Shown here piece by piece: positions 40,679-43,849 of a DNA stretch of 64,000 nucleotides (positions are counted from its first letter, which is position 1; each line of letters opens with the position of its first letter). The DNA is taken from contig JANLPR010000118.1 of assembly GCA_031367345.1 (NCBI GenBank), forward strand, positions 121,591 through 185,590. Direction: 5' to 3'. The translations under genes and the position numbers were made by a program. This stretch comes from Bacteroidota bacterium. GTDB lineage: Bacteria > Bacteroidota > Bacteroidia > AKYH767-A > 2013-40CM-41-45. The notes beneath the pieces are model-generated. The model was given only the letters and a program-made list of their open reading frames with translations, was not told the DNA's origin and made no database searches.

Positions 40679-42928
40679 TCATTGCTTAATAAATGGAAAA
40701 CTTTTTCGAGTACCATCATCGAAAATTGTTTCAAGAATCAAGTATGAAGGCGAAACTCCTGTGAGATCAATTGTAGTTAGCAATTGTGCGCCTATTTCTT
40801 TAATAATTTTTTCGCCAATTGAATTATAAACAGTTATTGAATTTATTTTTCTTTTTCCATTATTATAGACTCTCACTTGGTCTTTTGCAGGATTTGGAAA
40901 AAGATAAATTCCTTCAATTGCATGATCTAATGAAATGACTTCATCTACTGTTAAATAAATTGAATCGGAAGTAGAACTACAGTTAAATTGATTGGTAACA
41001 TCTACAGAATAGAATCCATCGTTTAAAGCAGTAAAAATTTGCAAGTTATTTCCAGGCAATGCAACTGAATTAAAATTCCATTGATAAGAATTCGCGTAAC
41101 TTGATGTTAGAGTATTTCCGTTAACAGTAATTATTGGTGCAGAAGGATTAGGATGAACTACTATACAGTTAACGCGCATCAAAGTTTGAGTACCATGAGA
41201 GTTGATAGCTGTTAATAGAACGGAATATGTACCTGCAGTTGAATAAGTGACAATGGGATTTTGATCTGAAGAAGTAGCAGGAAAACCTCCCGGAAATGTC
41301 CACGACCATGATGTTGCATTCGTAGAATGATCATTGAATTGTACCGAAGAGTTTGCACACACTTGCGAATTGCTAAAGTTGAAACTTACGTTTGGAATAT
41401 AACAATCGTTGACAACCAACGTCACAGAAGTTGTACTTATACTGGTACACGTTTGTGCTGTTAATTGAATTGTATTTGAACCAATAGTTGCGGGAATAAA
41501 TTGGAAAATTGAATCATGCGAAGATGTGCTTTGAATATTCCAAATCTGATCAGAATTGTTGGTCGCTAAGCTTACCAATGAAATTGTATCGCCCAAACAA
41601 AATGAATTTCCAATTGGAGCAATCACTGCGTGAGGAGCTCTGCAATTTAATTCAGCCATCCAAATATCACTATTCCCATGATTGTTAGATACCATGAAAT
41701 TATTACTGTATGAATAGCCAACAAACAAATACTGTCCTGTATTTAATTCTATGATACTTGCAGGTCTATCATTAATTCCACCACCATAACTTTTCTTCCA
41801 TTCAATATTGAAACTACCATCAGTCTTCAAGATCCAAATATCTTCACCCCCAAAATTTGATGCAACATCAAAGTCATTCGATGTTGAACCGCATGCAAGC
41901 AAATACCCTCCGTCAGTCGATTGTTTAATATCGAATACATTTTCCGATTGTGTGCCTCCAAATTGTTTTGAGCGTAGAATTGCACCTAAGCTGTCAACTT
42001 CCAGTATCCAGCAATCTGTACCACCAATGTTCATTGATAGGTCATGATTATTTGATCTGGAATATCCACCAATAATTATATTCTGACTATTATTAATAAT
42101 CATCGTTGTTGATGCATCATAAGATGAACCGCCAAATGTTCGGCTGAAAATCAAATTCCCGGATGAATTAAATTTTAAAAGCAGCCAATCATAGTTCCCA
42201 TAATTAGTAGTGATGTCTCCATCGGTAGAATTAGTTGTTCCACTGCAATAAATATTCCCTTGACTATCTTCCGCAATAGAATACAAGACATCAAGGTCTG
42301 TACCACCAAAGCTGTAACTCCAAACTAAATTCCCCGATACATCAATTTTAAATACCCAAGCATCTTCGTTTCCTTTATTTAATGGTAGATCATTATCAAA
42401 CGAAAAAGATCCACCAGAGACAAGAAATCCTCCGTTAGCTGAATTGCAAATTGAATATGCTAAATCACTTCGAGAACCTCCAAAAGTTCTTTGCCATTGT
42501 ATAGTTCCTAAAGTATCAACACAAACTACCCATGCATCAAAGCCACCTCTGTTGTAAGTTACATCACCATTAGAAGAGCTGGTATATCCTGCAATTATAA
42601 ATTTACCATTACATTCAACAATAGCAGTTGCATCATCAATTCCCGATCCGCCAAAAGAAAATTGGCAGATCAATCTTCCTGAAATATCGTATTTGGCTAA
42701 CCATATATCTGTTGAACCATGATTCGTAGAAATATCTCCATTATTAGAATCAGTATTTCCTAACAACCAGACTTGACCTGTAGACGATTTAATAATCTGT
42801 GAACCAAAATCAGAATTAGTGCCTCCAATACTTTTTGTCCATTCAATAATTGGTGGTGTTGCTGCAATAAGTATCGGATTAGTGATCAGAATGGTTAGAA
42901 AAAGTAATAAAATTGATTTTTTTTGCAT
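40679..42928 (-). CDS. secreted beta-propeller (SBBP-repeat) + PKD-domain protein with T9SS C-terminal sorting domain
   Basis: Signal peptide. ~7 repeats of the F/YGG.. D/S...I SBBP-like blade motif. PKD-like domain (VSFNFSNSQVCANSSVQFND...GTYSVLLTAINSHG). C-terminal FPNPAKDQVRV...ITVYNSIGEKI type-A T9SS CTD. Confidence 0.7.
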   Translation of the reverse strand: MQKKSILLLFLTILITNPILIAATPPIIEWTKSIGGTNSDFGSQIIKSSTGQVWLLGNTDSNNGDISTNHGSTDIWLAKYDISGRLICQFSFGGSGIDDATAIVECNGKFIIAGYTSSSNGDVTYNRGGFDAWVVCVDTLGTIQWQRTFGGSRSDLAYSICNSANGGFLVSGGSFSFDNDLPLNKGNEDAWVFKIDVSGNLVWSYSFGGTDLDVLYSIAEDSQGNIYCSGTTNSTDGDITTNYGNYDWLLLKFNSSGNLIFSRTFGGSSYDASTTMIINNSQNIIIGGYSRSNNHDLSMNIGGTDCWILEVDSLGAILRSKQFGGTQSENVFDIKQSTDGGYLLACGSTSNDFDVASNFGGEDIWILKTDGSFNIEWKKSYGGGINDRPASIIELNTGQYLFVGYSYSNNFMVSNNHGNSDIWMAELNCRAPHAVIAPIGNSFCLGDTISLVSLATNNSDQIWNIQSTSSHDSIFQFIPATIGSNTIQLTAQTCTSISTTSVTLVVNDCYIPNVSFNFSNSQVCANSSVQFNDHSTNATSWSWTFPGGFPATSSDQNPIVTYSTAGTYSVLLTAINSHGTQTLMRVNCIVVHPNPSAPIITVNGNTLTSSYANSYQWNFNSVALPGNNLQIFTALNDGFYSVDVTNQFNCSSTSDSIYLTVDEVISLDHAIEGIYLFPNPAKDQVRVYNNGKRKINSITVYNSIGEKIIKEIGAQLLTTIDLTGVSPSYLILETIFDDGTRKSFPFIKQ

Positions 42929-43218
42929 TTGCTTTCAATTCCGGGGGAGGCACAAATGCAAGATGGCTTCGTTTCTAAAAAGGAACAATTTTATTGGGTA
43001 AACTGCTTAGAAACAAGGGCTAAATGGGTTATAAATGTTATCAGTGAATCGTCATAAAAAAGCACTCTTTTATGGTTAAAAACCAGATTTTAGCGACAAC
43101 TGATTCGTTTTCTTACACAAGCAAGAAAGCAGTCAAAAGATAGTGATCTAAAATAAGAATAGGGGCGTAATAGGACTCAGTTATCGCATTTGAATTTATT
43201 CACCTGATAACAAGATTA

Positions 43219-43308
43219 TCAATCCCGTAAGATTGAAATATCAAAGAAGTCAACCCCGTAAGGTTGAAAAAAATACCCAGCCCCGTAAGGCTGGGTTTCT
43301 TTTTTTTA
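43219..43308. repeat. array of three tandem stem-loops with identical CCGTAA loop and co-varying stems; the last is followed by a T-run (terminator for the 43325..43849 gene)
   Basis: TCAATC-CCGTAA-GATTGA (43219..43236), TCAACC-CCGTAA-GGTTGA (43250..43267), ACCCAGCC-CCGTAA-GGCTGGGT (43275..43296), then TTTCTTTTTTTT. Confidence 0.6.
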
Positions 43309-43324
43309 GGCTTAATCTATCTTT

Positions 43325-43849
43325 TTATGCTATACTCTTTAATCGAACCGAAATAAACAATCTGTATACTCCAAAAATTAATGCAGTATAGAACAAGTCA
43401 CCGGCAATTTGATTCCCAAAAAACGGTATGGCCATGGTATAGCTTTGTAATGTACCTTCCAAATTCATTGGGTATAATTGGATATCATAATACCAAAAAG
43501 GAAGATTCGTGATAAGGAAAAAAACCAGAGAACTAATTAGAGAACTAGCAGCTAATCTAAGTATGTTCTGGTCAGAAGAGGATTTCATTCCAAGCCAAAC
43601 AGTAAATCCGATACAAGCATAAACAGCAGCCATTGAAAAATGAAAACCAAGTACTATATCGGTTAAGAACATTGCAATAAACGGCAATAGAAGAGCAAAC
43701 GTTTTATTCTTAAAATTGGCTCCGGAAAATAATGCCATAGCACCGATTGCTGTAAAATTAAATGGGTGCGGAAATAATCGGGTACTTGCTGCAATGAAAA
43801 TTAAAAAAGCTGCAGGTAACAGCATTGGCTTAATTGACGAGTTCTTCAT
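43325..43849 (-). CDS. small polytopic membrane protein (5 TM), unknown function; possibly an ECF-transporter S-component-like/DUF6580-like fold
   Basis: 174 aa, five hydrophobic helices, no soluble domain. Confidence 0.45.
   Translation of the reverse strand: MKNSSIKPMLLPAAFLIFIAASTRLFPHPFNFTAIGAMALFSGANFKNKTFALLLPFIAMFLTDIVLGFHFSMAAVYACIGFTVWLGMKSSSDQNILRLAASSLISSLVFFLITNLPFWYYDIQLYPMNLEGTLQSYTMAIPFFGNQIAGDLFYTALIFGVYRLFISVRLKSIA

Follow-up and report, generated by a model that had tools for sequence, protein, structure and literature searches.

The window analysed here is a stretch of 64 000 nucleotides (64 kb) from a Bacteroidota genome (contig JANLPR010000118.1). Its G+C content is 34.5%, and it encodes type IX secretion sorting domains. 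The element under study consists of three tandem hairpins with identical CCGUAA loops at positions 43219–43308, located between two genes of the minus strand. The gene on one side (43325–43849) codes for a DUF6580 membrane protein (Pfam PF20221, E = 6.5e-47), that on the other side (40679–42928) for a 749-residue PKD protein sorted by the type IX secretion system (T9SS), which is present in some relatives. A plus-strand RNA from this locus would be convergent to the DUF6580 gene and divergent from the gene for the 749-residue protein. As judged by sequence comparison, the three hairpins are a local member of an uncatalogued and apparently undescribed family of tandem-hairpin RNAs.

The hairpins had been reported by a first-pass annotation of the window, the range of which is correct, and the stems of all three are perfect. 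Hairpin 1 (43219–43236, plus strand) has the sequence TCAATC-CCGTAA-GATTGA with a 6-bp stem and its loop at 43225–43230. Hairpin 2 (43250–43267, plus strand) has the sequence TCAACC-CCGTAA-GGTTGA, also with a 6-bp stem, and its loop at 43256–43261. Hairpin 3 (43275–43296, plus strand), with the sequence ACCCAGCC-CCGTAA-GGCTGGGT and its loop at 43283–43288, is the long hairpin at the end of the array and has 8 bp, six of which are G-C. A covariance model of one unit (R1) scores 27.5, 29.6 and 32.4 bits for hairpins 1, 2 and 3, respectively; run without filters, it has no other match in the 64 kb. As had been described, hairpins 1 and 2 differ in a compensatory manner, with a T-A versus a C-G pair at the second position from the loop; this difference corresponds to the C-G/U-A alternation found at this position throughout the family (see below).

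Hairpins combining a 6-nucleotide (nt) loop with a stem of 6 bp or more occur in the window at chance level (30 versus 31.5 ± 5.7 in 200 dinucleotide shuffles). A triple with the same loop within 100 nt is found once in the window and in none of the 200 shuffles. The hexamers CCGTAA and TTACGG together occur nine times, with complementary flanking stems only at the three hairpins, which also account for all but one of the four CCGTAAG heptamers in the 64 kb. The 141-nt region folds better than shuffled sequences on both strands (z = −3.6 and −3.5).

Hairpin 3 is directly followed by the U-run TTCTTTTTTTT (43297–43307, plus strand), which would represent the 3′ end of a plus-strand RNA. With a G+C-rich stem of at least 5 bp, a short loop and an immediate U-run, hairpin 3 looks like an intrinsic (Rho-independent) terminator, as had been suspected. 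It is called terminator-like on both strands, its 8–9 pairs (six of them G-C) being followed by TTCTTTTTTT on the plus strand and by ATTTTTTT on the minus strand. The A-run AAAAAAT in front of hairpin 3 (43268–43274, of which AAAAAA is 43268–43273) can pair with the U-run and lengthen the stem, and minimum-free-energy folds do so. Read on the minus strand, the same A-run becomes the U-run at which the DUF6580 mRNA would end. As hairpin 3 is terminator-like in both directions, and as the stop codon of the DUF6580 gene is 17 nt away from the U-run, hairpin 3 would also be the terminator of the convergent DUF6580 mRNA.

For analysis of conservation, syntenic loci were fetched via homologues of a neighbouring FemAB-like protein (81%, about 53%, 43% and 38% identity). 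Hairpins 2 and 3 are retained nearly base for base in all syntenic loci and hairpin 1 almost as well, while the remaining spacer has diverged. In ten orthologs, the hairpin block has 57 invariant columns out of 81, versus 10 of 286 downstream of the block; the FemAB-like neighbour is 38–54% identical across the same ortholog set. Hairpin 1 has the form CAATC-loop-GATTG in most orthologs, its loop being mutated in two loci (L018 and L044). Hairpin 2 is near-invariant, with a compensatory change from A-U to G-C at one pair in 3 of 12 orthologs. The stem of hairpin 3 shows compensatory substitutions across orthologs (CCCAGCC/GGCTGGG, CCTAGCC/GGCTAGG, ACCTGCC/GGCAGGT, CCCTGCC/GGCAGGG and TCCAGCC/GGCTGGA), and the T-run behind it is present in 12 of 12 aligned orthologs. 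RNAalifold recovers all three hairpins in plus sense, with double changes at five pairs.

The DUF6580 gene accompanies the array in 15 loci. The array is retained where the gene for the 749-residue protein is absent (L015–L017, L019) and where a LolD-like ABC gene takes the place of the DUF6580 gene (L030, L083). Thus, it is tied to neither neighbour. The hairpins are unchanged in the relatives without the 749-residue protein, which speaks against their proposed role as an insulator upstream of this ‘cargo’ gene. In ten near-identical strains the hairpins do not differ at all, so that these strains are uninformative with respect to the hairpins; in the first 140 nt past the DUF6580 stop codon, the sole difference is an A-to-T exchange in the A-run just after the stop codon in two of the ten.

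To find further members, one genome per species was scanned for two copies of CCTTACGGGG spaced by 10–35 nt, which resulted in at least 120 loci. About half of the matches listed are from Bacteroidota, including Rhodothermales, and contain hairpin arrays of this core. The other matches (Streptomyces, Gemmatimonadota, Bacteroidales and others) were set aside, being mostly stemless tandem repeats or hairpins of the register CCCC-TTAC-GGGG. A metagenome scan added 63 loci, and viral contigs were scanned too; loci L179–L241 stem from freshwater and soil samples. Counted on the matches listed, the three scans revealed at least 136 tandem arrays of 2–14 hairpins in about 1 Mb. Among these matches, the carriers of arrays are Bacteroidota (including Rhodothermales) and T4-like Flavobacterium-type phages, whereas Bacteroidales apparently lack the motif. 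Carriers in culture include Adhaeribacter aerolatus NBRC 106133 (two arrays in NZ_BJYS01000002.1), Flavisolibacter longurius BT320 and Chitinophagaceae bacterium IBVUCB1.

The family consensus is C-A-R-Y-C / CYGUAA / G-R-Y-U-G, with stems of 5–7 bp. Counted from the loop, pair 1 is a closing C-G in 207 of 219 cases. Pair 2, the main covarying position, is C-G in 187, U-A in 22 and of another type in 15 of 224 cases selected without conditioning on that pair. Pair 3 is always purine–pyrimidine (A-U 112, G-C 102), pair 4 is mostly A-U, and the positions from pair 5 outward covary freely. A stem pair which had not been used in sequence selection is paired in 125 of 150 hairpins by four pair types, giving a covariation score of 0.574 versus 0.227 in shuffles. 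Among 150 unique array hairpins that have this loop or one of its two variants, 139 contain CCGTAA, 10 CTGTAA and one CTGCAA. The R1 model has 244 matches in 530 kb of Bacteroidota loci, and the units of one array are always on the same strand. Of 21 long hairpins, 15 are flanked by an A-run on one side and 14 by a T-run on the other. Arrays are found at several independent conserved positions: after the DUF6580 gene, in the TamB–RibBA interval, after the genes for LolD-like, TatD and PanB proteins, downstream of the rplT operon, and in Chitinophagales. Covariation across the orthologs and across the at least 136 arrays supports selection on both structure and loop; the first-pass annotation had argued for selection on structure or on a loop-binding protein. 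The annotation had also named what would speak against a function, namely the lack of other copies and a loop that is not conserved in orthologous regions. The outcome clearly favours a functional element.

A comparison with the 4227 models of Rfam 15 gave no match at gathering score in the window or in 18 array loci. The matches below threshold, analysed for the window and 24 array loci, were weak and unrelated, and none was specific to the hairpins. Literature searches by loop and core sequence and by topic found nothing relevant to CCGUAA tandem hairpins. No protein gene recurs beside the arrays except for the orthologous neighbours, i.e. those for DUF6580, the PKD/T9SS protein, the FemAB-like protein, AIM24, PGM and RibBA.

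The phage copies, found on 16 A+T-rich viral contigs, have one common arrangement. The major head gene (phrog_138) is followed, 13–18 nt past its stop codon, by a short hairpin and then by a long hairpin with U9, and a PhoH-like gene starts about 30 nt after the long hairpin. Genes and hairpins are all on one strand, and the loop is CCGUAA in the sense of the genes. The stems covary between phages while the loop is fixed. The CCGUAA motif is absent from the nearest cultured relative, Flavobacterium phage vB_FspM_immuto_2-6A. This phage has a GAGAGC-UUCG-GCUCUC-U7 terminator after its major capsid gene (L242, 1430–1455).

The strand carrying CCGUAA, which is the plus strand of the window, is most probably the RNA strand, since array polarity, gene-start spacing, promoter boxes, loop variants and wobble pairs agree. 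The polarity of the arrays is mostly fixed, with the long hairpin and its A-run and T-run flanks at the 3′ end in CCGUAA sense. In 27 arrays, the start of a gene is no more than 100 nt past the long-hairpin end, and in about 20 it is only 2–39 nt away; a gene start within 100 nt past the short-hairpin end is found in one array only. A start codon 2–39 nt from the long hairpin leaves no room for the promoter of a transcript in the opposite sense. A clear case outside the phages is locus L056, where panB is followed by five short hairpins, a long hairpin with U6, and the next gene; the arrangement in L066 is similar. The Bacteroidota −7 promoter box TAnnTTTG (PMC7366714) is found 18–75 nt upstream of 11 of 134 arrays in CCGUAA sense versus 2 of 125 in the other sense (background 3.3%, Fisher p = 0.02). 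The box TTTACTTTGYATCA recurs 26–28 nt upstream of several arrays. Complete units, consisting of box, 3–9 hairpins, purine-rich linkers and a long same-loop hairpin with U-run, are present in L210, L190, L138 and L197. On the first 56 arrays the strict TAnnTTTG pattern was uninformative (3 versus 2), and for the relaxed pattern T[AT]nnTTTG the difference is not significant (25 of 134 versus 15 of 125). The pattern TAn(n)TTTGnA (16 versus 0) was picked after seeing the data and does not count as a test. The loop variants CUGUAA (10 cases) and CUGCAA (one case) lose, when read on the other strand, the G of a UACG tetraloop. The orientation of the arrays relative to the flanking genes is, taken alone, mixed. 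In TTACGG orientation the flanks are T-rich on both sides, which corresponds to A-rich linkers on the other strand.

We consider it most likely, with a probability of about one-half, that the element is a small RNA or else forms the 3′ module of an RNA, showing several copies of its loop to a binding factor. A small structured RNA was among three options offered by the first-pass annotation and is the best fit of these. On the plus strand, such an RNA would consist of hairpin 1, an A-rich linker, hairpin 2, the A-run, hairpin 3 and the U-run, and would be ended by hairpin 3 acting as a bidirectional intrinsic terminator for this RNA and the convergent DUF6580 mRNA. It would offer the same loop several times to a partner that recognizes it specifically; this partner is most likely a protein that binds RNA and might, as a dimer, contact hairpin pairs. 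The RNA may thus act as a decoy or scaffold, like CsrB/RsmZ for CsrA or EutX for EutV. In the phages and next to some host genes, the same module would be placed in the 3′ end of an mRNA. We infer that the loop and the stem top are read by a specific partner because the hexaloop is invariant throughout the phylum, because the top four pairs have a fixed purine/pyrimidine pattern, and because there are up to 14 copies, often as alternating pairs. Neither folding stability nor a six-base seed can explain the invariant loop, the top-pair pattern and the duplication together. A more far-reaching model, possible but tentative, is that Bacteroidota own a Csr/Rsm-like circuit. An abundant RNA-binding protein would read the CYGUAA hairpin, multi-hairpin small RNAs with 2–14 sites would titrate or scaffold this protein, and the hairpin on the major-capsid mRNA of T4-like Flavobacterium-type phages would be a copy acquired to exploit or soak up the factor.

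Several points weigh against a small RNA with a loop-binding partner. The R1 model detects no single-copy hairpins elsewhere in the 64 kb, although a regulator that binds mRNAs might leave some. No candidate gene for a binding protein recurs next to the arrays according to clusters of the flanking open reading frames (ORFs). In the first of the two array copies of Adhaeribacter (L025), the long hairpin with the motif loop is at the opposite end, which is the main exception with respect to the strand. Wobble pairs number 38 in CCGUAA sense versus 22 in the other when all data are used, which is only borderline, and an earlier count of 20 versus 18 carried no strand signal. On the plus strand, the 290-nt spacer between hairpin 1 and the gene for the 749-residue protein contains no canonical TAnnTTTG box. 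As, in addition, the adjoining gene is divergent, transcription of the plus strand at the window locus is assumed by analogy with the relatives. A purely cis-acting role in termination or 3′-end protection covers the phage and panB cases without any partner. What the sequences show are the hairpins with their conservation and covariation, the family and how widely it is spread, and, in relatives, units extending from promoter to terminator; strand, transcription in the window and partner are inferred. Support for the strand is fairly good, and the function is a reasoned guess.

The main rival explanation, which we regard as unlikely, is a 3′-end module that acts only in cis. The long hairpin would terminate, the stack of hairpins would block 3′ exonucleases and insulate the neighbours, and no trans-acting RNA would be involved. 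In this case, the loop may be retained for fast or stable folding, or may be touched by a general termination or decay factor. That hairpin 3 is terminator-like on both strands is consistent with this, as is the start of 48 arrays, in CCGTAA sense, within 100 nt past the stop codon of a co-directional gene; moreover, the phage module follows the major head gene, at the place where phage immuto has an ordinary UUCG terminator. However, promoter–hairpins–terminator units without an upstream gene to serve are found in several lineages, and folding stability alone leaves the phylum-wide invariant hexaloop and the pattern of the top four pairs unexplained. Also, hairpins 1 and 2 lie beyond the DUF6580 terminator and yet are conserved as well as hairpin 3. 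Alternatively, the loops and the adjoining C-rich 5′ arm might be seeds of a base-pairing small RNA for UUACRG targets, for which the C-rich loops of RNAIII or RsaE from Staphylococcus provide a comparison. The identical exposed loops on an RNA that extends from promoter to terminator would suit such a function. Structured seeds are conceivable, Bacteroides having been described as lacking obvious Hfq/ProQ homologues (PMC7366714). We consider base pairing improbable nevertheless: a seed of six bases is short, the top four stem pairs are constrained in their purine/pyrimidine pattern, which is not needed for loop pairing, and the leaders of the neighbouring genes contain no TTACGG, the window having only three TTACGG and three other CCGTAA.

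The minus-strand reading, in which the hairpins are located in the 3′ untranslated region of the DUF6580 gene with UUACGG loops (a U.G-closed UACG of the UNCG class), had been put forward by the first-pass annotation; hairpin 3 would then be the primary terminator, backed by two fail-safe terminators. Read in UUACGG sense, 31 arrays, among them those of the DUF6580, TamB and LolD-like loci, have their start no more than 100 nt past a co-directional gene, a T-rich tract follows 78 of 214 hairpins, and in the window the fold of the minus strand is slightly more stable (−37.6 versus −33.8 kcal/mol). This reading is nevertheless doubtful. The recurrent loop variant UUACAG drops the G which is required by the UNCG fold, the gene starts close to the long hairpin leave no promoter room in about 20 arrays, and the counts of promoter boxes (11 versus 2) and the terminator position favour the plus strand. 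In addition, T-rich tracts flank the hairpins on both sides and not only after them, and the phage genes are all in CCGUAA sense. The most improbable explanation is a mobile palindrome, such as a repetitive extragenic palindromic (REP) sequence or bacterial interspersed mosaic element (BIME), or a site acting at DNA level by protein binding or as a cruciform. The palindromic units are indeed clustered in intergenic regions, and there are several arrays per genome in some metagenome-assembled genomes (for example L043/L083, L103/L131, and two copies in L025). On the other hand, the window contains a single array, with no extra one in about 140 kb of long (20-kb) orthologous loci; the core is common to several orders and to phages, and the loop is conserved phylum-wide rather than, as in REP-type elements, the stem within a species. 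Here the asymmetric centre is conserved and the arms covary freely, the opposite of what would be expected from a RAYT-type enzyme or from a protein that binds DNA as a dimer. Each array has one orientation and strand-asymmetric flanks, no transposase-like or RAYT-type partner gene recurs in the flanking ORF clusters, and the ten near-identical strains show no single-unit insertion polymorphisms. The suggestion of a REP/BIME-like element is not supported.

In architecture, the family most resembles sponges of the CsrB/RsmZ type and the dual-hexaloop/EutX system of ANTAR proteins; in position, it is close to REP/BIME elements and T4-type intercistronic hairpins. It is a member of none of these groups. 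CsrB and RsmZ are sponges with many short hairpins which display A(N)GGA(N) to their partner CsrA or RsmE. Shared features are the stand-alone multi-hairpin RNA with a common loop motif, short single-stranded linkers, an intrinsic terminator and a variable copy number (here 2–14). The likeness is architectural only, as the loop CYGUAA of the present family has no GGA, the stem top is constrained, the terminator often bears the motif, and the hairpins also occur at mRNA 3′ ends and in phages. REP families are species-specific and stem-conserved, reach tens to hundreds of copies per genome and go together with RAYT transposases, with flanking GTAG/CTAC. They resemble our arrays as clustered intergenic palindromes, often just after genes, that can stop exonucleases or act as weak terminators. 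In contrast, the CCGUAA family is low-copy, loop-conserved, phylum-wide and without a recurrent enzyme gene, and the flank profile of its arrays contains no conserved GTAG. MAEB, uup and Flavo-1 are orphan motifs, defined by bioinformatics, in which one hairpin type occurs in tandem; as described, they are set apart from the CCGUAA family by sequence and host groups. The C(UUCG)G intercistronic hairpins of T4 have a fixed loop and follow highly expressed phage genes. The phage copies likewise are fixed-loop hairpins after phage genes, and hairpin 3 has the stem and U-run of an intrinsic terminator; the differences are the CCGUAA hexaloop on the sense strand and the extra short same-loop hairpins beside the terminator.

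The loop itself probably belongs to neither of two tetraloop classes. UNCG tetraloops are normally closed by C-G, and their loop G is essential for the fold. On the minus strand, the closing pair would be U.G, and the recurrent variant UUACAG (10 unique cases) replaces the G. On the plus strand, GUAA might be taken for a GNRA tetraloop; however, it is preceded by two pyrimidines, C-G closure breaks the stem register, and the fold is a hexaloop. The N position of GNRA is an almost invariant U in the family loops. As for ANTAR proteins, the hexaloops of their targets start with A and carry G as the fourth base, and the second hairpin cannot form together with a terminator stem (PMC8934654). The dimeric protein reads tandem hexaloops near a terminator, and a small RNA with the motif can sequester it (PMC8934654). 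Tandem six-base loops near a terminator, and a sub-family consisting of hairpin pairs, make the CCGUAA family similar to ANTAR targets and to EutX/Rli55. However, it has C at position 1 and U at position 4 (U and C, respectively, on the other strand), with CCGUAA in 139 of the 150 unique array hairpins counted above, and the three hairpins of the window are separate, form together in the consensus fold and do not overlap a competing terminator stem. The most suitable category for the CCGUAA family is that of tandem-hairpin RNAs whose loop motif is repeated, of which it is a new family.

Post-transcriptional control in Bacteroidota is poorly understood, and in Bacteroides, the genus of this phylum that has been studied, obvious homologues of Hfq or ProQ are described as lacking and the RNA chaperone has been called elusive (PMC7366714). 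The spread of the family with a single six-base loop suggests that the loop is read by a binding factor. A hairpin with an invariant loop that occurs throughout the phylum, in up to 14 copies in dedicated units, and has been borrowed by phages offers a handle on a missing RNA-binding factor, and the CCGUAA hairpin is directly usable as bait. If the hairpins were only terminators or stabilizers, a lineage-specific loop requirement for 3′-end formation would be new. Even a module that acts only in cis would help in annotating genomes and in the design of expression tools for Flavobacteriia, Cytophagia and Chitinophagia.

The spacer upstream of hairpin 1 contains two further features. An inverted repeat, GTTATC (43180–43185) and GATAAC (43206–43211), lies on the plus strand directly upstream of hairpin 1 (43180–43211) and is an uncertain part of the element. 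It encloses the only TTTG of the upstream spacer (43187–43190, cgcaTTTG). Its arms are retained in L011, L014, L015, L017 and L131, with 20–35 variable nucleotides between them. The repeat could serve as an operator for a regulator, belong to the promoter region, or add a fourth stem to the RNA. A conserved block on the minus strand (43112–43121) has the sequence CTTGTGTAAG, or CATTTGTAAG in most orthologs, and is located about 185 nt from the start codon of the gene for the 749-residue protein. It resembles a promoter box of the −7 type for the minus strand, and is found too in relatives without this gene and in the TamB–RibBA loci. In L015–L017 and L019, the gene for the 749-residue protein is missing while the AIM24 gene and the hairpins remain, which represents a gene-sized insertion/deletion polymorphism beside the array.

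Several loci outside the window have an individual organization. The Streptomyces repeat GCAGTTCCCCGCGCCCCTTACGGGGCG, often in tandem (L023, L046, L063, L099, L105 and others), gives CCCC-TTAC-GGGG hairpins, which have another register; this dispersed repeat is unrelated to the Bacteroidota hairpin family. With 14 hairpins, the array in L116 (6080–6750) is the largest of those counted: a unit of about 105 nt, made up of two motif hairpins and a diverged 65-nt spacer, occurs seven times in tandem. It may be a tandemly duplicated small RNA gene. In L190, L197, L210 and L234, two hairpin types (RUGCC/GGCAY and CYAACC/GGUURG) alternate, with conserved purine-rich linkers between them, and this regular alternation hints at pairs of hairpins as the functional unit. 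The array is located downstream of the infC–rpmI–rplT ribosomal operon in L190, L228 and L234. The cultured species Adhaeribacter aerolatus (NBRC 106133) has two paralogous arrays 4.4 kb apart (L025, 575–760 and 5003–5114), each of which adjoins a paralogous small gene on the minus strand.

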